Assembly: GCA_963704435.1 (NCBI GenBank) | Contig: OY969902.1 | Coordinates: 652,544-716,543 of the forward strand | Length of the DNA: 64,000 bases | Direction: 5' to 3' | From: an uncultured archaeon | GTDB taxonomy: Archaea; Micrarchaeota; Micrarchaeia; Micrarchaeales; CABMGC01 | In this document: piece after piece, positions 8,489 to 52,500 of the stretch | Numbering within the stretch: position 1 is the stretch's first letter | How the letters are laid out: each line of letters starts with the position of its first letter | Position numbers and translations under genes: made by a program | The notes under the pieces: model-generated | Seen by the model: the letters and a program-made list of their open reading frames with translations, nothing else | Databases searched by the model: none | What the model was told of the DNA's origin: nothing

Positions 8489-9247
8489 ATGGCAAAGAAA
8501 ACAAGGAATGCAAGGACGAAGGCGAAGGTCGCCAGGGCGAGCGTCGCCTCCGGAAGCAAGAACTCCGTGATAGCGAAGCTCAAGAAGGCGAAGATAAAGG
8601 ACAGCGTGCTAGTGGACATGTCGAGCTACGCGCAGACCGAGGACTTCACGAGCTCGGCGGCATGCGCGATGATGGTGCTCAAGTACGTCAACCCCAGCTT
8701 CAAGTTCAAGAGGGAGCAGGAGTACAGCATCTGGCAGGAGGCCGTTAACGGCAGCGTCTGGTACGGCTCGAAGTACGGCCTCGCCTACGCGCTGGCGAAG
8801 CGGGGCGCCAAGGTCGGCATAATAAGCAACACCAAGGACGAGGGGTACGAGAAGAAGATGGCCGTCTACGAGAACGTCAACCTCGACACGCTGCTCGCGT
8901 CTTTCAATGAGATAAGGCAGAAGTCGGTGTCGGCAGGCGTGGAGGAGGAGCACGGCGTGGTTACGCTCGGTACCATAAAGAAGGCGCTGTCGTCCAACCA
9001 AATCCCGATAGTGCTCATAGACGCCAGGATAATAAACTCATACCTGGACTCGATGCCGCACTGGGTCGTCGTGAAGGGCTATGACAAGGACACCTTCTAT
9101 GTCGTGGACCCGTATTCCGACAGCACGATAACCCTCGGCACTGACGCGTTCAAGTCGGCGCTGGGCTTCGACAACAACTACCACATGATAGCGGTCAGTG
9201 CCCCTGCCGGAAGCGCCAGTAGGGCGAAGCCAAGGCGCGTCGGCTAG
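8489..9247 (+). CDS. Papain-like cysteine peptidase, C39-like domain, with a Lys-rich N-terminal tail
   Basis: Q...C pattern YAQTEDFTSSAACAMMVLKY and His/Asp pattern PHWVVVKGYDKDTFYVVDPY match the peptidase C39-like catalytic arrangement. No signal peptide. The ATG at 8489 is preferred over the GTG at 8480. Confidence 0.55.
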   Translation: MAKKTRNARTKAKVARASVASGSKNSVIAKLKKAKIKDSVLVDMSSYAQTEDFTSSAACAMMVLKYVNPSFKFKREQEYSIWQEAVNGSVWYGSKYGLAYALAKRGAKVGIISNTKDEGYEKKMAVYENVNLDTLLASFNEIRQKSVSAGVEEEHGVVTLGTIKKALSSNQIPIVLIDARIINSYLDSMPHWVVVKGYDKDTFYVVDPYSDSTITLGTDAFKSALGFDNNYHMIAVSAPAGSASRAKPRRVG

Positions 9248-9254
9248 AAAGCCT

Positions 9255-9539
9255 TTACGGGCGGCGCGGCATTCCTGCCTGTCCTGGGGCAGGTCCGCGC
9301 GCGAAACGCGCAACGTTCCTATTCCTGTCAAGCCGGCTATAGCAGCCGAGGCACATTACCCTGCGTCTGACGATGCCCGCCCTGACGTACGGATCCCTCT
9401 CCTGCACGTACCGCGGCGGTATTACTCTTATCCTGTCCCTTTCGATTGGACGCTCGCAGCGCATGCAGCGGTCCTCTATGCCGTACGCGTCTTCTAAGAC
9501 AGCTCCCGCTGTCGCTACTACTCTTTCGGAATCTCCCAT
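9255..9539 (-). CDS. Putative small zinc-ribbon protein
   Basis: CMRC...(33 aa)...CLGC four-Cys pattern. It lies in a GC-rich region with several competing overlapping ORFs, so support is weak. Confidence 0.3.
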   Translation of the reverse strand: MGDSERVVATAGAVLEDAYGIEDRCMRCERPIERDRIRVIPPRYVQERDPYVRAGIVRRRVMCLGCYSRLDRNRNVARFARGPAPGQAGMPRRP

Positions 9540-43797: not shown

Positions 43798-44039
43798 TTT
43801 TCAGTATATTTTCTGGCCTGCAGGCATTAAACTGTAAGAAATGCTTCTTAAGCATTCCGTGCGAGCTTGCATTGGACTCACCCGCGCCTTCCCTGGCAGT
43901 TCTGGCCAGCGCCGGAAGCTACCGTCGATTTCCATACAAACCTTTAAATAAGTTCTTTGGCAATAACCATATTGACTAGGGGCGCGTCCTCTAATTCTGC
44001 GCGCTGACTTAATCACATCATACTTAATCGGTAGATTTT

Positions 44040-45311
44040 ATGGCAGAGAAACCGCACATGAATTTGATCTTCATAGGGCACGTCGACCACGGAAAGTCGA
44101 CCACAGTGGGAAGGCTCCTCTACGACACCGGAGCCGTGAGCGAGCAGGACATGAAGAAGATGAAGGACGAGGCGCTGAAGCTGAACAAGCCAACGTTCGA
44201 GTTCGCGTTCTTCATGGACGAGCTGAAGGAAGAGAGGGAGAGGGGAATCACGATAGACATAGCCCACAAGGACTTCAAGACCGCGAAGTACTACTTCACG
44301 ATAATCGACGCCCCTGGCCACAAGGACTTCGTAAAGAACATGATCACCGGAGCCAGCCAGGCAGACGCTGCGGTCCTGGTAGTCGCAGCCCCCGAGGGAC
44401 CCCAGTCGCAGACCAGGGAGCATGCGTTCCTCGCGAAGGTCCTTGGAGTCAACCAGCTCATAGTCGGGATCAACAAGATGGATGCTTGCAACTACGACAG
44501 GCAGAAGTACGAGGATGCCAAGCAGAAGCTGACGACGATGCTGAAGGCGATAGGCTACGACGTGACGAAGATACCTTTCATACCCTACTCCGCATACACC
44601 GACGAGAACGTCTCGAAGGGGAGCGAGAAGATGAACTGGTACAGCGGACCGACGATACTTGCCGCGCTCGACAACCTGGTAGTGCCGCCTAAGCCCACGG
44701 ACAAGCCGCTGAGGCTGCCGATCCAGGACGTTTACAGCGTATCTGGCTTCGGGACCGTTCCTGTAGGGAGGGTCGAGACAGGGATAATGAGGCCGGGAGA
44801 CCAGATAATAATAATGCCAGGCGGTGTCAGGACCGACGTCAAGAGCATCGAGATGCACCACCAGCAGCTTGAGAAGGCCGAGCCCGGAGACAACATCGGG
44901 TTCAACATAAAGGGCGTAGACAAGAAGCTCATAAGGAGGGGAGACGTAGTCGGCCCTGCCAGCAACCCGCCTACGGTAGCGGAGGAGTTCACGGCGCAAA
45001 TCGTCGTGATAGACCACCCGACCGCGATAGCGCCGGGATACAGCCCTGTGTTCCACATACACACGATGCAGATGGCGGCCACGATAACCGAGATACTTGA
45101 GAAGAAGGACCCGAAGACCGGCCAGACGCTGCAGAAGAACCCCGAGTTCATAAAGACAGGCGACGTGGCGATCGTGAAGGTGAAGCCGAGCAAGCCCGCC
45201 GTAGTCGAGAAATACAGTGAGTTCCCGCCTTTGGGCAGGTTCGCGATAAGGGACATGGGTCAGACGGTCGCAGCCGGCGTAGTCCTTGATGTTGTGAAGA
45301 AGGCGGCTTGA
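44040..45311 (+). CDS. tuf: Translation elongation factor EF-1 alpha
   Basis: GHVDHGKST, DAPGHKDF, NKMD. Full length, 423 aa. Confidence 0.97.
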   Translation: MAEKPHMNLIFIGHVDHGKSTTVGRLLYDTGAVSEQDMKKMKDEALKLNKPTFEFAFFMDELKEERERGITIDIAHKDFKTAKYYFTIIDAPGHKDFVKNMITGASQADAAVLVVAAPEGPQSQTREHAFLAKVLGVNQLIVGINKMDACNYDRQKYEDAKQKLTTMLKAIGYDVTKIPFIPYSAYTDENVSKGSEKMNWYSGPTILAALDNLVVPPKPTDKPLRLPIQDVYSVSGFGTVPVGRVETGIMRPGDQIIIMPGGVRTDVKSIEMHHQQLEKAEPGDNIGFNIKGVDKKLIRRGDVVGPASNPPTVAEEFTAQIVVIDHPTAIAPGYSPVFHIHTMQMAATITEILEKKDPKTGQTLQKNPEFIKTGDVAIVKVKPSKPAVVEKYSEFPPLGRFAIRDMGQTVAAGVVLDVVKKAA

Positions 45312-45616
45312 TGCCAATCGCGAGAATCAAGCTGATAAGCAGGACGAAAGGTTCGTCCAGGGACATAGCCTATCAGATAATCGGCATAGCGAAGACGATA
45401 GGGGTCAAGTGCAAGGGCCCGGTCCCGCTCCCAACGAGGAGGCTTATCATACCCGCGAGGAAGACCCCTTGTGGGGACGGATCGCACACCTACGAGCATT
45501 GGGAGATGAGGATACACAAATGGCTGGTGGAGATAGAGGGAAGCGACCAGGCGCTCAGGCAGATAATGAGGATCCCTGTGCCAGACACCGTGCAGATCGA
45601 GATATCCCTGTCCTAG
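45308..45616 (+). CDS. rps10: 30S ribosomal protein uS10
   Basis: ARIKLISRTKGS...GPVPLPT...HTYEHWEMRIHKWLVEI. ATGA overlap with tuf. Confidence 0.95.
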   Translation: MMPIARIKLISRTKGSSRDIAYQIIGIAKTIGVKCKGPVPLPTRRLIIPARKTPCGDGSHTYEHWEMRIHKWLVEIEGSDQALRQIMRIPVPDTVQIEISLS

Positions 45617-45660: not shown

Positions 45661-46818
45661 TCAGATTCCGGCTTCCTTCTTAAGAGATTCGGCCAGGTCC
45701 GTCCTCTCCCAAGTGAAGTCGGGGTCCTCCCTACCGAAGTGGCCGTAGCACGCCGTCTTCCTGTAGATCGGCCTCCTCAGGTCGAGGGCCTTTATCATGG
45801 CTCCGGGCCTTATGTCGAAGACCTTCTTCGCCACCTCCGCGATCTGCTCGTCAGGTATCTTTCCCGTGCCGAACGTCTCGATGTAGAACGAGACCGGCTG
45901 GGATATGCCTATGGCGTACGCCACCTGGACCTCGCACCTTTTCGCTAGGCCGGCGGCCACGATGTTCTTGGCGATGTACCTCGACATGTACGCCCCCGAC
46001 CGATCCACCTTCGTTGGGTCCTTCCCGCTGAAGCACCCGCCTCCGGTCCTTCCCATGGCGCCATAGCTGTCCACCACGATCTTCCTTCCGGTGAGCCCCG
46101 TGTCCGCGAGAGTCCCGCCTATCACGAACCTTCCCGTGCCATTGACTATGAACTTCGTGTTCTCGTCGAGCAGCTCCTTCGGTATGACCGGCCGGATTAC
46201 CTTCTCTATTATGTCGCTCTTTACCTGCTCGGTCTCCACGCCATCATTGTGCTGTGCGGCAATTACGACAACCGCGACCCTCTTAGGAACGTTGTCCACA
46301 TACTCGACGGTCACCTGCGATTTCCCATCAGGCCTCAGGTAGGGCAGGGTGCCGTTCTTCCTGCATTCCGCGAGCCTGAAGGCGAGCTTCTGCGCCAGCA
46401 GGATCGGAAGGGGCATGAGCTCCTTGGTCTCGTCGGACGCATAGCCCGAGACCATTCCCTGGTCTCCTGCGCCGATGTCGAGGCCCGTGCTTTCCACGAC
46501 GCCCATCGCAATGTCCGGGGACTGCTCCTCGATCGCGGTTATTATACCGCACGTCGCCCAGTCCAGGCCGTCCTTCGCGTTGTCGAGGCCTATCTCCTTC
46601 AGCGTTTTCCTCACCGCCTTGGGCAGATCCACGTATGCGCTTGTGGTTATCTGGCCCGTTATCAGGACCATGCCCTGCATGACCATCGTCTCGCACGCGA
46701 CGTGCGCCGCAGGGTCCTTCTCGATTATCGCATCGAGCACGGCGTCCGATATCTGGTCCGCGACCTTGTCAGGGTGCCCTTCCGCTACGCTCTCCGATGT
46801 GAATGAGTATTTTGACAT
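45661..46818 (-). CDS. metK: S-adenosylmethionine synthetase, bacterial/eukaryotic MetK type
   Basis: [51 protein letters not shown]. Confidence 0.95.
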
Positions 46819-46847: not shown

Positions 46848-48311
46848 TCAGTTCATCTTCTTCTCGGCTCTTAGCATCTCGAGCGCCAGGGACCTGTTGC
46901 TGCCTATGACGTTCTCGCTCTCGGCGTCGTCCTCGCTCAGGTCGTAGAGCTCCTTCTTCCCGCCTCTGTAGGACATCAGCTTGAAGCCTTTGTAATACGT
47001 GGCAGTGGCGAACTTGTTGTAGGCCATCTTGGTCCTGTATATGGCGTCCGCGTTCTTGGACCTCCTCCTCAGCAGCTCGAGCAGGTAGGTGTCCCAGACC
47101 TCGGTTATCCCGACGTGGTCCGAGAACACGAAGTTGTCCCTCCTGAGCTGCCCGTTTATCTCGTCGGCCCTGCCGTAGCCTATGTTGACTATCGAGTCGC
47201 GCAGCGCCGTGAGGCTCACGTACTTGTCCACCTCCTCCCTGTTGCTCACCTGCCTGCCGTTCTCGAACCTCGCGGTTATCAGCGGCACCCGGGTCAGCTG
47301 CTCGTACGGGAACATGTTGTGGTACATCTGGCCGTGCTCCATGAACGCCTGGCCGTGGTCGCTCGCGAGCACCACGACCGCGTTGTCCAGGGCGCCGTTC
47401 CTCTTAAGTATCCCCATCAGGTCCGCCACCCGTGCGTCGAGGTAGGCGATCCGCTTCTCATATGCCTCGCGTATCTTCTTCACTCGGTCTGGCTCCAGGA
47501 GCCCGCTCATGTACAGCCACTTGTCCTGCTCGACATACGTGTCCGAGACGAGGTTCGTGGGATAGCCCTCGTGGCCCTCCATGTAGCTTATGAACATGAA
47601 GCTGCTCCTGCCCTGCGAGCCCTTGAGGTACGAGTCGATGAGAGCGTTCGTCTTCCTCGCCCCGGCGTCTATCTTGTAGAACCCGTACTCCTCGGAGAAC
47701 TTCTTGTTCAGCCTCGTCCTGAGGTCCATGTAGAGCCTGTCGAGCCTCTTTTCGGGTATCAGCCGCGATATGGCGGACGCGAGCTCGATCAGCCTCTTCC
47801 TCGCCATGTCGCTCGACACCAGCCGCAGCGACGACTTCACCAGCGGTGTGCCCGAATCAAGCTTGTCGTTTATCCATACGTTGTGCGTGGACATGAATCC
47901 GCTGGCCAGCCCGGTCTGCACGCTGATGAACGGGCTGTTTGAGAAGAGGGCGGTTTCATAGCCGAGGTAGCTCATCTGCTTCGCCAGCGTTATCTCCTTG
48001 GATTCGAGGTAGGACCTCTTCTTCAGGAAGGGGTCCGTGTTCGCGTCGGCGTTCTTGATCGGGTCCTTGTTCAGCTCCCTTATGCCCTTGACCCGCTTTC
48101 CGAGGAATATGGAGACGTGCGAAGGGACGGTGAAGGTCCCAGGGGATATCGCGTTCCGGTAGACCACGCCCCGTCCTGCTATCCCGTCTATCGTGCTGAG
48201 CCTGCGGCGTCCGCCGTAGGAGGCGGTGTTGTCCGCCCTCAGCGTGTCGAGCATGACGAATATTACGTTGGGCCTGCCGGACTTCAATGGATCACGCATG
48301 CGCGGCTGCAA
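46848..48311 (-). CDS. Sulfatase-like (alkaline-phosphatase superfamily) hydrolase/transferase, Thr-type active site
   Basis: [14 protein letters not shown]. The active-site segment [13 protein letters not shown] aligns with the sulfatase C-x-P-x-R signature. [12 protein letters not shown]. No signal peptide or TM segment. Confidence 0.8.
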
Positions 48312-49761: not shown

Positions 49762-50166
49762 CTAATCCCTCATATTCAAATCGTTTTTTTCTTCAAGGGA
49801 GAACAGTAGCTCCTCATTGTCGTCTTTTGCTGCCTTCACTCTGGTCTTCTTTCCGCATCCGGCGCACTCATAATGTATGATGAAAGAGTTACCGTCGTAT
49901 TCCGTACTGACGGGGATCATGAGCGCGCCGCATCTGGAAGCTCTGTCCCCCGGCTTATTGTCAACATGCTTGCTCGTGAGGCATTTCGGACAGTGGTCCG
50001 TATAGCCACCGCCTTTCACACGCGTGCCGCATACCTCACACACGAAATCCTCGACGCGCTTCTGGAAATCGACTGACCCCAATCCGCTCCGTCTCGCGGG
50101 CGGGCTGTCGAAGCCCCTTGACCTCGCAACCCCCTTTTTGCCATGGTTTTTTGACTTTTGCAGCAT
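49762..50166 (-). CDS. RNHCP-domain zinc-binding protein
   Basis: FVCEVCG...YTDHCPKCLTSKHVD...GDRASRCGALMIPV...YECAGCG matches the RNHCP domain pattern, with TDHCP in place of RNHCP. Confidence 0.6.
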   Translation of the reverse strand: MLQKSKNHGKKGVARSRGFDSPPARRSGLGSVDFQKRVEDFVCEVCGTRVKGGGYTDHCPKCLTSKHVDNKPGDRASRCGALMIPVSTEYDGNSFIIHYECAGCGKKTRVKAAKDDNEELLFSLEEKNDLNMRD

Positions 50167-50251
50167 CTCCTCACCCGTACACCAAAGTCATTCGGTGTGA
50201 ACATTTTTATTTCTTCAATACAACAACATTTTATAACATTAGGTGGTTTAC

Positions 50252-50476
50252 ATGGTGAAGAAAGGCGCAGCCAAGAGAAAGTACACAACAATAACCATTC
50301 CTTCCCCTCTTTTTGCAAAGCTCCAGGAAAAGATCAAGAGCACGGGATTCTCCTCGGTCTCCGACTATGTTACCTACATACTCCGCGAGACGATAACCGA
50401 GATTGAGCTGAAGAAGGCAGGCAAGGAGAAGGCAGGGGGCGTTATCGAGAAGCTCAGGGCGCTCGGATACGACTGA
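50252..50476 (+). CDS. Ribbon-helix-helix (CopG/Arc/MetJ-like) protein with C-terminal KLRALGY tail
   Basis: Beta strand YTTITIP, helix SPLFAKLQEKIKSTG and helix SVSDYVTYILRETI, then a Lys/Gly linker and EKLRALGYD. Confidence 0.6.
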   Translation: MVKKGAAKRKYTTITIPSPLFAKLQEKIKSTGFSSVSDYVTYILRETITEIELKKAGKEKAGGVIEKLRALGYD

Positions 50477-50500
50477 CTGCACGCAAAACGAGTTGCGCAA

Positions 50501-51253
50501 ATGACGAAGCAGGACCTGAAGGCGCTTGAGGAAAGGAGCATCTACCTAGTCAGGGACGCCAATGAGAAGTTCCGGAACGTCGCGGTTCTCTGGGGCACGG
50601 GGAAGGACAGCACAATTCTTCTGTATCTGATAAAGAAGGCATTCCGCGGCAAGGTCCCATTTGCCGTGGTTAGCGTGGACAACGGCGCCGAGTTTCCCGA
50701 GACGATTGCCTTACGGAATGAGCTGGCTAGGACGTGGAAGCTCAATCTCATAGTCGTGCCTAGCGGATCCGAATCCGGAGCGAGAAGCCCGGGATGCTGC
50801 GGCGAGAGCAAGGAACAGGCGCTCTCCAGGGCCATCGCAAAGCGCAAGTTCGATGCGGTTCTGGTCTCGACCAGGTCCGACGAGGAGCGCTATTTTCGGA
50901 ACCGCGTCAGCTCAAAATCAAGCAAGGGTCAGATTGAGATGCGTGACGACAGGTCGTCCAAGCTCGAGGTCAAGGGCTGCGCTACCGTAGCCCCAATTCT
51001 TGACTGGACCGGAATCGACGTGTGGAACTACATCGAATCCGAGCGGATACCGCTGAATCCCCTTTATCTCGCGCTTAATGGAAGCCGGTATGGGAGAATC
51101 GGATGCACGCGCTGCTCCGTACCCATCAAGTCGGGCGCGGACAGCGTCTCCAAGATAATAAAGGAGTCCGAAGCGCGCGGCGCAGGCGCGAATCCAGGCG
51201 GCAGATCCGAGAAGGACCTGCTCCTGCAGAAGCTGAGGGCCCTGGGCTACTAG
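50501..51253 (+). CDS. CysD-like PP-loop protein (PAPS reductase / sulfate adenylyltransferase subunit 2 family)
   Basis: LEERSIYLVRDANEKF, PP-loop WGTGKDST, VDNGAEFPET, WTGIDVWNYI. The C-terminus is QKLRALGY. Confidence 0.8.
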   Translation: MTKQDLKALEERSIYLVRDANEKFRNVAVLWGTGKDSTILLYLIKKAFRGKVPFAVVSVDNGAEFPETIALRNELARTWKLNLIVVPSGSESGARSPGCCGESKEQALSRAIAKRKFDAVLVSTRSDEERYFRNRVSSKSSKGQIEMRDDRSSKLEVKGCATVAPILDWTGIDVWNYIESERIPLNPLYLALNGSRYGRIGCTRCSVPIKSGADSVSKIIKESEARGAGANPGGRSEKDLLLQKLRALGY

Positions 51254-52500
51254 CTGCCCGGGCCGCGCGTCCTGAAAAACCTCACTTTCGGCTTCTCGCT
51301 CTTCTGCATCTTCCTTACGTCAATACCCTTCACGAAGGATATGTTGGCGGGTATCGCGAACGTCTCCGCCCTGACCTCGTCGCTGTACAGCTTGCGCATC
51401 GCCTCCTTGTCCCCCTGCAGCGCGGCGTTGATGAAGGCGCGGACGTTGACGAGCGAAGAGTATCTGTCCGATCTCACTTCCTCCATGCCCTTCGGGAGCA
51501 TTATCGCGAGCGGCACCCTCACGATCTCGTCGGACAGCGCAGGCCCGTGGCCGATGAAGCCGTGCTCTCCGAACTCCTGCCCGTGGTCCGAAGCGATTAT
51601 TATCATCTGGTCCTCCCCGAACCTGTCGATAAGGTCCTCGACGATCTCCAGTGTGTACCGGTAGCATTTCAGGGATGCCTTCTCGTAGAGCCGCTTCCAC
51701 AGCGCTATGAGCTTGGGGTCGGTCTTCTTCTTCATGAAGGGTGTCGACCACGTGAAGTCCCTCTCCTTGACTCCGACGTAGGGGTCGTGCGGCTCCATGA
51801 AGTCGACAAAGAGGAAGAAGGGTTTCTTGAACCGGGACTTCTTCTCGGTCGCGACCGTGGGCCGCCCTCCCTTCTCTATGGGCCAGCCGTCGATGAACCG
51901 GGCCTTGAGCTTTTTCATCGCGGCCACAGGGGTCAGGACGACCCCCGAGGCTATCGCCTCGAAAAATAGGTTCGGGTCCTCCTTGAGGATGGACATGGAG
52001 ATTCTGAACAGGTCCCCGACTCCGAGGTCCCCGCCGTGCTCGTTCCTGTACTTAGAGGCGGCGATCTTGGCCTTCTGCGAGGCCTCGACGACCATGCCGA
52101 ACACGTCGGTGAAGTACGGCTCCTCCTTGAATTTGTCGAATTCGTCGAACCCGTACACGGGATGGAAGAACGGGTTTGCGGATATGGCGTAGGTCCTGTA
52201 GCCGGCGTCCTTCAGGTCGCTCACCAAGGTCCTCGCGTTCAGCCTTATCCTATCTATGTCCAGGCACTTTATGTCCTTCGTCTCGTGCGCGCCGTGCTCG
52301 CTGGCGTAGGTGCCCGTGAGCAGCGAAGCCGTTGACGGGAGCGTCCAGGTGCCGGGGGCTATGCACTTGTCTAGGCATATGAAGTTGCCGAGCTCGGAGA
52401 GCTGCATCCCCCTCCTGGTCGAGAGGTCCTTGAAGGTGTCGAGCCTCATCGTGTCCATTATGATTATCGTTATGTTGAACTTCTTCATTGGAAAGCCCAC
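51250..52500 (-). CDS. Sulfatase-like (alkaline-phosphatase superfamily) hydrolase/transferase, Thr-type active site; paralog of 46848..48311
   Basis: ITIIIMDTMRLDTF, WTLPSTASLLTGT, ASDHGQEFGEHG. Its 3' end overlaps the CysD-like gene by 4 nt in convergent orientation. Confidence 0.8.
   Translation of the reverse strand: MGFPMKKFNITIIIMDTMRLDTFKDLSTRRGMQLSELGNFICLDKCIAPGTWTLPSTASLLTGTYASEHGAHETKDIKCLDIDRIRLNARTLVSDLKDAGYRTYAISANPFFHPVYGFDEFDKFKEEPYFTDVFGMVVEASQKAKIAASKYRNEHGGDLGVGDLFRISMSILKEDPNLFFEAIASGVVLTPVAAMKKLKARFIDGWPIEKGGRPTVATEKKSRFKKPFFLFVDFMEPHDPYVGVKERDFTWSTPFMKKKTDPKLIALWKRLYEKASLKCYRYTLEIVEDLIDRFGEDQMIIIASDHGQEFGEHGFIGHGPALSDEIVRVPLAIMLPKGMEEVRSDRYSSLVNVRAFINAALQGDKEAMRKLYSDEVRAETFAIPANISFVKGIDVRKMQKSEKPKVRFFRTRGPGS

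Follow-up and report, generated by a model that had tools for sequence, protein, structure and literature searches.

Organization of the locus

The window, which was the whole 64-kb stretch of archaeal DNA analysed, contained a putative RHH repressor gene and a CysD-like gene in tandem on the forward strand. The RHH gene (positions 50252–50476, from the ATG at 50252 to the stop codon at 50476) encoded 74 amino acids and was assigned by its homologues, a family profile, and an AF2 model. A Shine-Dalgarno-like AGGTGG, read from the sequence, was located on the same strand at 50241–50246, 5 nt upstream of the ATG, and GGTG elements resembling it were also found 5′ of the RHH start in related loci. 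An alternative GTG start for the RHH ORF was observed at 50243. The CysD-like gene (50501–51253, forward strand) encoded a divergent PP-loop protein of 250 amino acids, belonging to the "minimal CysD" clade and containing a PAPS_reduct domain (PF01507, 5e-27). Both genes were in the same frame and were separated by a spacer of 24 nt (50477–50500, forward strand) with an inverted repeat, CGCAA-N6-TTGCG. They are probably co-transcribed.

A sulfatase-family gene (PF00884) on the reverse strand at 51250–52500 was convergent with the CysD-like gene and overlapped its stop codon, and a second one (PF00884) was located at 46848–48311, also on the reverse strand. Sulfatase or Phosphodiest genes recurrently adjoined RHH genes in related loci, and both sulfatase-family genes belong to this recurrent neighbourhood, outside the tail pair proper. 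The window operon, composed of the RHH gene and, after the spacer, the CysD-like gene, and flanked by the sulfatase-family genes, was reduced in comparison with those of its relatives.

The RHH protein and its family

A β-strand, KYTTITIP (residues 10–17), and two helices made up the predicted core of the RHH protein, and a linker rich in Lys and Gly joined this core to a C-terminal helix with EKLRALGY-D at its end. The strand was followed by TGFSSVSDY; an N-terminal strand of alternating polar residues, followed by two helices with a G-x-S/T N-cap, is expected of the RHH superfamily. The helices spanned residues 18–29, 36–56, and 61–70 in the AF2 monomer model, in which the tail helix was predicted with modest confidence (pLDDT ~60). 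When the protein was searched against the PDB with Foldseek, RHH proteins accounted for 12 of the 13 top matches, every one with an E-value of at least 1. The matches to Pfam RHH_1 and to the NCBIfam NikR N-terminal model were both below threshold. A homologue search found 312 sequences, and a profile built from non-Micrarchaeal family members matched the window RHH over its full length with an E-value of 2.3e-23.

These matches place the window RHH in a large archaeal family of tailed RHH regulators, proposed here and as yet without a name. The family, for which there was no Pfam model, formed no fewer than 1120 clusters at 50% identity and 5536 or more at 90%, and its members came from Micrarchaeota, Thermococci, Thermoplasmatota, Aciduliprofundum, and Altiarchaeales. 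When 51 diverse members were aligned, the L, L, G, and Y of the tail were the only invariant columns. A search of archaeal RHH proteins for LGY-type tails, which the sequence-only reading had called for, showed that 124 of 149 diverse representatives ended in LxxhGY followed by 0–4 residues. Judged from these alignments, members of the family are marked out by a charged, flexible linker that carries a short amphipathic helix, h-h-E-K-L-[RK]-A-L-G-Y, at its end. In the window protein a predicted RHH core was combined with the charged linker and the L-x-x-L-G-Y helix, and its gene headed a sulfate-activation operon.

Family members were encoded at the head of operons for sulfate activation (APS/PAPS), for the most part Sat–PAP phosphatase–APS kinase–sulfotransferase. 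The order Sat, DHH, APS kinase, sulfotransferase was found in 45 loci, with CysD followed by CysN as the alternative, and most family members headed Sat-type operons containing neither CysD nor a GTPase. Cultured A. boonei and a Thermococcus MAG shared the same Sat-type order. A cognate toxin gene was absent directly 3′ of the RHH gene; this position was occupied by a PP-loop enzyme homologue in the window and by Sat, CysD, or a 99-amino-acid protein in the relatives.

Promoter and operator

Upstream of the RHH gene, the predicted promoter with its operator (50200–50241, forward strand) contained AACATT repeats at 50200, 50225, and 50235. A degenerate palindrome, ACATTTTATAACATTA, was located at 50226–50241 with a perfect half-site, TAACATTA, at 50234–50241, and TTTTTATTT at about 50204–50212 is a probable TATA element. 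With up to 2 mismatches allowed, related loci totalling 956 kb contained 59 matches to the consensus palindrome, TAATGTTATAACATTA, and 56 of these lay within −120 to +60 of an RHH start, spread over 55 Micrarchaeal loci. The window copy had 3 mismatches and was the sole match in 64 kb, where 6 of 100 shuffles gave at least one match. Sat-type loci had tandem repeats of 10–11 bp containing TAATTA at the RHH promoter. RHH proteins usually bind repeats, inverted or tandem, at their own promoters, and such repeats were present here as predicted operators. The most likely targets of the RHH protein are the repeated half-sites that lie between the TATA box and the start of its gene, where it would act as a repressor.

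The CysD-like protein

The CysD-like protein was 50% identical to its nearest full-length homologue, and its top PDB fold match was 1ZUN_A. It scored 156 bits against the NCBIfam CysD model PRK05253, under the cut-off of 195 bits, and 115 bits against TIGR02039, under the cut-off of 397; relatives such as L067 exceeded the PRK05253 cut-off with 308 bits. The window protein had lost 32 of the 101 columns that were at least 90% conserved in 20 homologues. Three catalytic segments of CysD were compared, the PP-loop S-x-G-K-D-S, RRDE..R.KER, and ER.GR. The window protein departed from this set: its PP-loop read GTGKDS, 6 residues were deleted within RRDEHGIRAKER, and ER.GR had been lost. It is probably degenerate and catalytically impaired or inactive. 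The core was predicted by AF2 with pLDDT above 90, and the values fell below 50 at residues 129–157 and 228–250.

The C-terminal tail of the enzyme, QKLRALGY (51227–51250, forward strand), was analysed through homologues, an alignment to the canonical CysD tail, and the AF2 model. All 22 CysD-like homologues ended in [KR]LRALGY[ML]. In the AF2 model the tail helix was of low confidence (pLDDT below 50) and was unpacked against the body. A C-terminal ...GY[FM] is expected of CysD, and the window protein, ending in LRALGY, had this tail. The tail of the minimal CysD clade was aligned to that of 1ZUN_A with a domain E-value of 1.4e-5, which bears out the earlier suggestion of a likeness to the basic-x-G-Y-F tail of bacterial CysD. 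From this alignment, the enzyme tail is read as the ancestral CysD C-terminal module (ER.GR...ME..K..GY[FM]), its RHH-type sequence having been acquired in the minimal CysD clade.

Identity and conservation of the shared tail

The RHH product ended in ...GVIEKLRALGYD, as read from the sequence, and the CysD-like product in ...LLLQKLRALGY. The RHH tail, EKLRALGYD, was encoded at 50447–50473 on the forward strand, and its residues L68, L71, G72, and Y73 were invariant in 44 Micrarchaeal members. The sequence-only reading had reported that both adjacent products end in KLRALGY with four synonymous differences, and the sequence and its codons agreed on both counts. The RHH codons were aag ctc agg gcg ctc gga tac and the enzyme codons were aag ctg agg gcc ctg ggc tac, with synonymous differences at four of the seven positions and identity at the other three.

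The weight of this match against chance differed with where it was sought. When the residues of the window's 71 gene-like ORFs were shuffled, 7-mers shared at any position arose on average 0.88 times per shuffle and at least once in 57% of shuffles, so the shared 7-mer alone is weak evidence. At the C-termini of adjacent genes such sharing was rare. A common C-terminal 5-mer appeared there in 10 of 2000 shuffles, and the analytic expectation for a common C-terminal 7-mer was about 3e-6. Furthermore, the RHH and CysD-like genes were the only real ORFs of the 64-kb window that ended in LGY.

Conservation was what settled that the match is real. Both tails were conserved in orthologues together with the gene adjacency, for which the sequence-only reading had asked. 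The tail was kept in all 120 RHH homologues among the matches listed, and within Micrarchaeota it was present in the RHHs of 79 of 80 species. Downstream sequence was sufficient in 74 loci of these 80 species; CysD was located downstream of the RHH gene on the same strand in 67 of the 74, and each of the 67 had the LRA[LF]GYM tail. A consensus of 10 residues, V-[IM]-E-K-L-[RK]-A-L-G-Y, was common to the RHH and enzyme tails.

When the two tails were compared in 62 genomes, 362 of 434 tail positions were identical, and the identical positions used the same codon in 42.5% of cases, as against about 35% expected. It is therefore the peptide that is maintained, as the sequence-only reading had proposed from the four synonymous differences, and the codon usage ruled out recent gene conversion as the source of the identity. 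Covariation between the RHH and enzyme tails within genomes was essentially absent, with an identity of 6.96 observed and 6.83 permuted (p = 0.046).

The C-terminal half of the RHH protein and the last ~44 residues of minimal CysD gave reciprocal profile matches with E-values of ~1e-4 in small databases, whereas the canonical CysD profile gave no match to the RHHs. The earlier idea that the small DNA-binding protein carries a copy of its neighbour's C-terminal peptide stood in part: the peptide is the same, but it was not simply copied, being the hallmark of a very large RHH family.

The tail as a module

Further proteins carried the tail, namely a CysH-like paralogue, a single member of the 99-amino-acid family (L019), and some APS kinases. 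The pattern was specific to the pathway. When it was searched in 1813 gene-like ORFs from two locus sets (1231 and 582), 225 matches were obtained, and all but one belonged to four families: RHH (including one RHH fusion), CysD/CysH-like, the 99-amino-acid family, and APS kinase. In P0244 the tail occurred in tandem duplicate, which shows that an internal position is possible for the motif. A similar end, ...L.ELGYL, was seen in APS kinases that have been crystallised. We take this end helix to be an ordinary part of the APS kinase fold, in which case the motif may also be a plain helix end. In addition, L..LGY resembled the first helix of PG_binding domains in weak Pfam matches. The likeness of the tail to the MIM1-like pattern (ExxLxxRLxxL) is presumably a resemblance only.

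The two tails may alternatively be functionally unlinked. The RHH tail would be a tetramerisation or cooperativity helix like those of Mnt or LacI and the CysD tail that protein's own C-terminal helix or lid, their identity resulting from old 3′-end recombination or from convergence on a helix cap (L..LG-aromatic). The ~44-residue reciprocal similarity could be a recombination footprint, the missing covariation and the native ends of the APS kinases with the weak similarity to PG_binding helix 1 fit this explanation, and operators of 2–5 phased repeats require several dimers. Against it, the solvent-exposed E, K, R, and A were also identical in both families in more than 60 genomes, the same tail was present on a third and a fourth family of the same neighbourhood, and the motif was missing from about 1600 other ORFs of these loci. 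The degenerate window enzyme, without its catalytic motifs, had also retained the tail. Unlinked tails are considered somewhat unlikely.

The tail might instead be an effector site, whose basic residues and Tyr bind APS, PAPS, or PAP, that is, a ligand-contacting lid common to the regulator and to CysD, CysH-like proteins, and APS kinase. Every tail-bearing enzyme handles APS or PAPS, and the RHH protein lacks a sensor domain of its own; MetJ is an example of a bare RHH that binds a corepressor resembling a nucleotide. A helix of ~10 residues is, however, unlikely to serve as a common ligand site across three unrelated folds, and in the window enzyme the helix survived the loss of ER.GR. The C-terminal helix of APS kinase, as we understand the solved structures, is away from the active site. 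Overall, an effector site is very unlikely.

A degradation or targeting signal, coordinating the turnover or localisation of the regulator and the enzymes, would agree with a portable C-terminal tail on a flexible linker in several pathway proteins. No candidate receptor was apparent, and the distance from Tyr to the C-terminus was 0–4 residues with the motif internal in P0244, unlike the carboxylate-anchored HbYX. This role is highly improbable. The same distances and the internal motif led to rejection of the HbYX and PDZ readings of the tail.

A candidate GTPase partner

An EF-1α-like or CysN-type GTPase was encoded directly after CysD in at least 58 of the 67 Micrarchaeal operons. The partner GTPase of the relatives scored 273 bits as EF-1α and 222 bits as CysN, both under the cut-offs. 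No operon GTPase was found beside the window CysD-like ORF in the 64 kb searched. The only EF-Tu-type GTPase there was the housekeeping aEF1α at 44040–45311 (705 bits, cut-off 502), about 5 kb away. Tail-bearing loci without an operon GTPase in the fetched flanks were the window, L081, L002, L011, L019, and L021.

The sequence-only reading had raised the possibility that both tails compete for a CysN/EF-1α-like GTPase, and aEF1α may be added as a target, so that formation of the CysD–GTPase complex would be linked to transcription. In favour of this, CysD acts together with CysN and has the tail module as an ancestral feature, and the relatives encode such a GTPase after CysD. The C-terminal part of CysD is missing from the 1ZUN model, in which 204 of 325 residues were modelled; this is consistent with a mobile C-terminal part, and with only these residues modelled the chain is uninformative on where the tail binds. 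In the accessible text of papers citing 1ZUN, nothing on the CysD tail was found. A precedent exists in the archaeal stalk protein aP1, whose acidic linker and C-terminal helix, LxxLxxLFG, bind a cleft of aEF1α (PDB code 3WY9; PMC4267659).

Other observations speak against this proposal. At least 45 RHH-tail operons were Sat-type and had no CysN, and some tail-bearing loci lacked an operon GTPase in the fetched flanks. Canonical CysD ends in KKEGYF, without both leucines, yet the RHHs adjoining canonical CysD–CysN kept LRALGYLD, and the canonical CysD profile did not match the RHH tails. Because the Sat-type operons have no GTPase, canonical CysD ends in KKEGYF, and the window lacks an operon GTPase, GTPase docking is unlikely as a general function of the RHH tail, and competition between the two tails for such a GTPase is quite unlikely. 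What stood of the proposal was that a candidate partner is encoded after CysD in at least 58 relatives; it was not supported by the Sat-type RHH operons or by the window. Among the loci compared, no operon-encoded protein was common to all tail-bearing systems.

Proposed mechanism

The tail may well be a portable docking helix that couples the regulator and the pathway enzymes and feeds back on operon transcription; this reading, to which we give nearly an even chance, suggests a physical link between the pathway enzymes and their own regulator. The tails of the regulator and of the enzyme would engage the same surface. They could engage each other, by tail bundling or by RHH oligomerisation on the repeated operators, or both could engage a conserved third-party receptor. 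Against the docking reading stand the shortness of the tail helix, which is hardly long enough for a stable bundle, the lack of an operon-encoded protein common to all tail-bearing systems, the near absence of covariation between the tails, and the similar helix ends of the APS kinases and PG_binding domains. The tails may compete for one docking surface, and the amount or state of the pathway enzyme would then be fed back on transcription of the operon.

A more specific form of the docking-helix reading is put forward tentatively. The helix h-h-E-K-L-R-A-L-G-Y would be a pathway-specific assembly and feedback tag, distributed from DPANN archaea to Thermococci, by which the repressor, minimal CysD, CysH-like proteins, and some APS kinases bind one another or a common receptor, so that enzyme abundance or complex state directly sets transcription; the regulator and the enzymes would then be linked by tail mimicry. 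The local pair of the window could be a relic, since its operator is degenerate (3 mismatches) and its enzyme looks decayed.

For archaeal sulfate activation or PAPS synthesis we are aware of no described transcriptional regulator, and a literature search found none. The tailed RHH family is a very widespread candidate for such a regulator, and its likely operators can be read from sequence. It is directly testable because it is present in the cultured, tractable Aciduliprofundum boonei and Thermococcus. Furthermore, minimal CysD of DPANN archaea was found paired with an EF-1α-like GTPase, which is relevant to the proposal that CysN arose from EF-1α.

Comparison with known systems

When the CysD-like protein was compared with CysD–CysN of P. 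syringae (PDB code 1ZUN), they shared the PAPS_reduct/PP-loop fold and the homologous C-terminal module, and relatives of the window had an EF-Tu-type GTPase gene directly downstream. However, the minimal CysD clade lacked the insertion of ~35 amino acids (1ZUN residues 232–265), had the tail LRALGYM in place of KKxGYF, and was paired with a GTPase scoring higher as EF-1α. The window copy differed further in its score below the CysD cut-off, its loss of conserved catalytic residues, and the absence of a GTPase gene.

In aP1, as in the tail studied here, a charged flexible linker leads into an amphipathic helix at the C-terminus, in which hydrophobic residues occupy i, i+3, and i+6 and an aromatic residue adjoins Gly (LxxLxxLFG in aP1, MxxLxxLGYM here), and Micrarchaeal aP1 ended in GLASLFG. 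The resemblance is one of pattern only, and most RHH-tail operons have no EF-1α-like GTPase.

Mnt of phage P22, and by analogy the tetramerisation helix of LacI, is similar in being a small protein with a strand, two helices, and an extra C-terminal helix. The tail of the window family is shorter and is carried on an acidic or basic flexible linker. No other part of the family is as conserved, and the sequence of the tail is also found on enzymes of the regulated pathway. With MetJ, Arc, and CopG the family shares phased inverted or tandem repeat operators at its own promoter, which are predicted here.

In sulfur assimilation, the tail of CysE inserts into CysK, CdiA-CT mimics this tail, and CymR–CysK is a complex of regulator and enzyme. 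The concept is the same, a short C-terminal peptide coupling the formation of an enzyme complex to the control of sulfur assimilation, whereas the proteins, the pathway step, and the motif are different, and docking in the window family is a proposal from sequence.

The RHH antitoxins (ParD, VapB, FitA, and RelB-type) were the nearest Foldseek neighbours, with E-values of at least 1, and likewise consist of an RHH followed by a disordered C-terminal segment that binds a partner. They are autoregulators encoded first in their operons, and their tails bind the product of the downstream gene. In the window family, however, the downstream genes encode metabolic enzymes (Sat, CysD, and others) and not toxins, and the tail is invariant although the downstream gene varies. 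If the tail is a docking tag, it would provide a compact coupling of enzyme complexes to their own transcription, akin to that of CysE–CysK and CymR or to the conditional cooperativity of antitoxins.

The gene pair and its shared C-terminal tail

The ribbon-helix-helix (RHH) ORF on the forward strand (start codon ATG at 50252, stop codon at 50476) encoded 74 residues and ended in GVIEKLRALGYD. The CysD-like ORF (250 residues, 50501–51253, forward strand) ended in LLLQKLRALGY and lay in the same reading frame, with one stop codon between the two. The 24-nt spacer (50477–50500) contained a small inverted repeat, CGCAA-N6-TTGCG. Re-reading of the sequence bore out the earlier statement that the seven common tail residues are written with four differing synonymous codons. 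No further real ORF in the 64-kb window had an LGY ending. Taken alone, a common 7-mer was not unusual, as one arose among the window's 71 gene-like ORFs in 57% of residue shuffles. The adjacency of both genes and the C-terminal position of the motif were unusual: neighbours with the same C-terminal 5-mer occurred in 10 of 2000 shuffles, and the analytic expectation for the same C-terminal 7-mer in neighbours was ~3e-6.

Conservation decided whether the shared tail was real, and confirmed the observation. The tail was retained in all 120 of the RHH homologues among those listed and in 22/22 enzyme homologues. The RHH tail was present in 79 of the 80 Micrarchaeota species loci, and of the 74 loci whose sequence extended far enough, 67 had a same-strand downstream CysD gene, each of the 67 ending in LRA[LF]GYM. 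The tail and the gene adjacency were thus conserved in orthologues. Between the two proteins of a genome, 362 of 434 tail positions were identical (62 genomes), and the same codon was used at 42.5% of these identical positions, against ~35% expected. This low share therefore indicated that the identity is held at the peptide level, as the sequence-only reading had proposed, and that the enzyme tail of the same sequence is kept by selection on the peptide.

Predicted RHH fold and putative operators

No Pfam model covered the RHH protein, and its match to the NikR N-terminus was sub-threshold. The protein contained a KYTTITIP strand followed by two helices predicted by AF2, and its Foldseek neighbours were nearly all RHH proteins, none of them significant. 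A conserved putative operator added to the evidence for an RHH fold. The 956 kb of related loci contained 59 copies of the palindrome TAATGTTATAACATTA (≤2 mismatches). Of these, 56 were at the RHH promoter, downstream of the TATA box and ahead of the start codon. Because of this position of the putative operator, the RHH protein may be read as an autorepressor. The window copy was degenerate (50226–50241), with a perfect half-site and phased AACATT repeats. Perfect extra copies off the RHH promoter were observed in two Micrarchaeota loci (L018:8484–8499 and L013:6833–6848), the former just upstream of the GTPase gene.

The broad tailed RHH family

An RHH profile search of 1.84 billion representative proteins gave 1120 clusters, and a word-indexed search gave at least 5536 clusters at 90% identity. 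The ending L-x-x-h-G-Y plus 0–4 residues was found in 124 of the 149 best representatives, typically as ...EDEEKVKERLRALGYLD, and the L, L, G, and Y of the tail were the sole invariant columns when 51 diverse members were aligned. Named clusters of the word-indexed search came from Thermococcus, Thermoplasmata, Aciduliprofundum boonei, and Altiarchaeales. Longer members of ~185–214 residues (P0146, P0155, P0189, P0220, P0256, P0272, and P0275) had an extra N-terminal RHH_1-type domain fused to the tailed RHH, and two tailed RHH paralogues were adjacent in L141–L144, L150, L152, L156, and L160.

Across 80 metagenomic loci, sulfate-activation operons began with the tailed RHH gene. A Sat-type ATP sulfurylase followed ~14 nt after it in 45 of the 80, and was itself followed by a DHH and/or Phosphodiest protein, then APS kinase and sulfotransferase. 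The DHH protein resembles an archaeal PAP phosphatase (PMC10322725). Four metagenomic loci had canonical CysD-CysN after the RHH gene. In cultured A. boonei, the order was RHH, Sat, DHH, sulfotransferase, APS kinase, and Na/sulfate symporter, and a Thermococcus MAG had a similar operon. In Palaeococcus pacificus, a CopG gene, a candidate relative with a locus tag adjoining sat, was reported to be up-regulated along with sat (PMC6981617). Within 100 nt before the RHH start in L083–L125, Sat-type loci contained 3–5 tandem 10–11 bp repeats with TAATTA, located after the TATA box and before the Shine-Dalgarno sequence and different from the Micrarchaeal palindrome. These comparisons point firmly to a conserved tailed RHH protein that heads sulfate-activation operons and has its own putative operator.

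The Micrarchaeal operon and the window locus

The typical Micrarchaeal operon was composed of RHH, a 99-residue protein, minimal CysD, and a 407-residue GTPase (L001–L080, for example L067:7992–11389 and L076:7959–10274, the latter in Ca. Micrarchaeum sp. A_DKE, NZ_CP060530.1). The 99-residue protein bore a GATIYLKGL motif and had no Pfam or NCBIfam match. The GTPase scored higher as EF-1α than as CysN (273 vs 222 bits with NCBIfam; 214 vs 154 bits with PDB chains), and the operon may be relevant to the proposal that CysN arose from EF-1α.

The minimal CysD clade (262 residues) exceeded the NCBI CysD cut-off with 308 bits and was missing the ~35-residue insertion of bacterial CysD. The final ~60 residues of the clade, tail included (ERSGREQDKEKIYVMEKLRALGY), aligned to P. 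syringae CysD, and the basic-x-G-Y-F tail that the sequence-only reading had ascribed to CysD proved correct. The window enzyme had a PAPS_reduct domain, with CysD as the nearest family (156 bits vs the cut-off of 195), and had lost 32 of the 101 columns that are ≥90% conserved in homologues, including part of RRDEHGIRAKER and the ER.GR motif. In the AF2 model, the core was confident, and pLDDT was <50 at residues 129–157 and the tail.

The window locus is a reduced form of the Micrarchaeal operon, in which both the 99-residue gene and the operon GTPase are absent. The sole EF-Tu-type GTPase in the window was the housekeeping aEF1α (44040–45311, forward strand), followed by the genes of ribosomal protein S10 (45308–45616, forward) and MetK (45661–46818, reverse). 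A longer antisense ORF over the aEF1α gene (44013–45317, reverse) was rejected as an ORF-listing artefact. The gene of an RNHCP-domain zinc-ribbon protein (49762–50166, reverse) was divergent from the RHH gene and shared with it the 85-bp intergenic region containing the putative operator; such a gene was also near RHH in L081, the closest relative contig. Sulfatase-family genes were located at 46848–48311 and 51250–52500 (both reverse), the latter overlapping the CysD-like stop codon. Sulfatase/Phosphodiest (alkaline-phosphatase superfamily) genes recurred beside tailed RHH genes at many loci, Micrarchaeal and Sat-type alike.

The arrangement in L081 differed again. Its CysH-like PAPS_reduct paralogue (8575–9381, reverse) ended in KKLRELGYN, within a CysD-type C-terminal module, HERAGRG...MKKLRELGYN, also carried in L002 (9566–10360, reverse), L011, L019, L021, L033, L038, and L070. 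The family scored under the CysH cut-off, and the L081 copy, the sole copy read, had no ECGLH cysteine motif. The paralogue often adjoined a sulfatase gene and RHH.

The tail as a module

RHH proteins beside canonical CysD-CysN retained LRALGYLD, whereas that CysD ended in KKEGYF, and the canonical CysD profile had no match to RHH tails. Whichever of Sat and CysDN an operon uses, the tail thus marks the regulator family as its hallmark. The proposal that the RHH protein had copied its neighbour's peptide therefore stands for the shared tail and is doubtful for the direction. The minimal-CysD and broad RHH profiles matched reciprocally over ~44 residues (E ~1e-4; database size, a few thousand ORFs). 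In the simplest history, CysD would always have had a ...GY[FM] tail, and the minimal-CysD clade would have altered or exchanged it so that it matched the RHH-type helix.

The tail acts like a module. Proteins other than RHH and minimal CysD also carried it, namely the CysH-like paralogue, some APS kinases, and one member of the 99-residue family (L019:2388–2741), whose C-terminal extension ended in ...KEKEELMRQKLSALGYM; in this locus it is grafted onto a fourth protein family. One RHH protein (P0244) had the tail twice, in tandem. Among 1813 gene-like ORFs in two locus sets (1231 + 582), the tail pattern matched 225 times, all but one within the RHH, CysD/CysH-like, 99-residue, and APS kinase families. 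The pattern can also represent an ordinary helix end, because APS kinases generally end in ...L.ELGYL, including the crystallised 7yq0 and 8a8h, and L..LGY gave weak Pfam matches to helix 1 of PG_binding domains. Archaeal APS kinases (L083–L162) natively ended in ...EESVEKVLKKLEELGYI/L, close to the RHH tail.

Both parts, a probable RHH autorepressor and a CysD-family enzyme, belong to kinds already known. What appears undescribed is the role of the tailed RHH family as regulator of archaeal sulfate-activation operons, the RHH tail common to pathway enzymes, and the operon of minimal CysD, EF-1α-like GTPase, and 99-residue protein. Literature searches gave nothing relevant.

Proposed role of the tail

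We infer that the tail acts as a docking helix on a tether, because it is portable, is better conserved than any other part of a protein without a sensor domain, hangs on a variable charged linker, has low AF2 monomer confidence in the enzyme and only modest confidence in RHH, and has exposed residues (E, K, R, and A) identical in both families. The sequence-only reading had proposed a CysN/EF-1α-like GTPase as the shared docking partner. Such a GTPase is indeed encoded in the operon of relatives, and the tail of stalk aP1 on aEF1α is a precedent, but most tailed RHH proteins head Sat-type operons without one, so that it is unlikely to be the partner of RHH tails in general and is doubtful as the shared one. 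The alternative of unrelated structural roles for the two tails carries substantial weight. No pairwise covariation was found between RHH and enzyme tails, which argues neither for nor against feedback through the enzyme tail.

Since an invariant peptide would need an equally invariant receptor, the favoured reading of the docking helix is that the tails self-associate or meet a universal cellular receptor. Enzymes that also carry this helix could take part in the interaction or compete for it, which would provide feedback. The hypothesis is directly testable in cultured archaea. For self-association of the RHH tail, which would give tetramerisation or cooperative binding on the phased operator repeats, Mnt and LacI provide the model.
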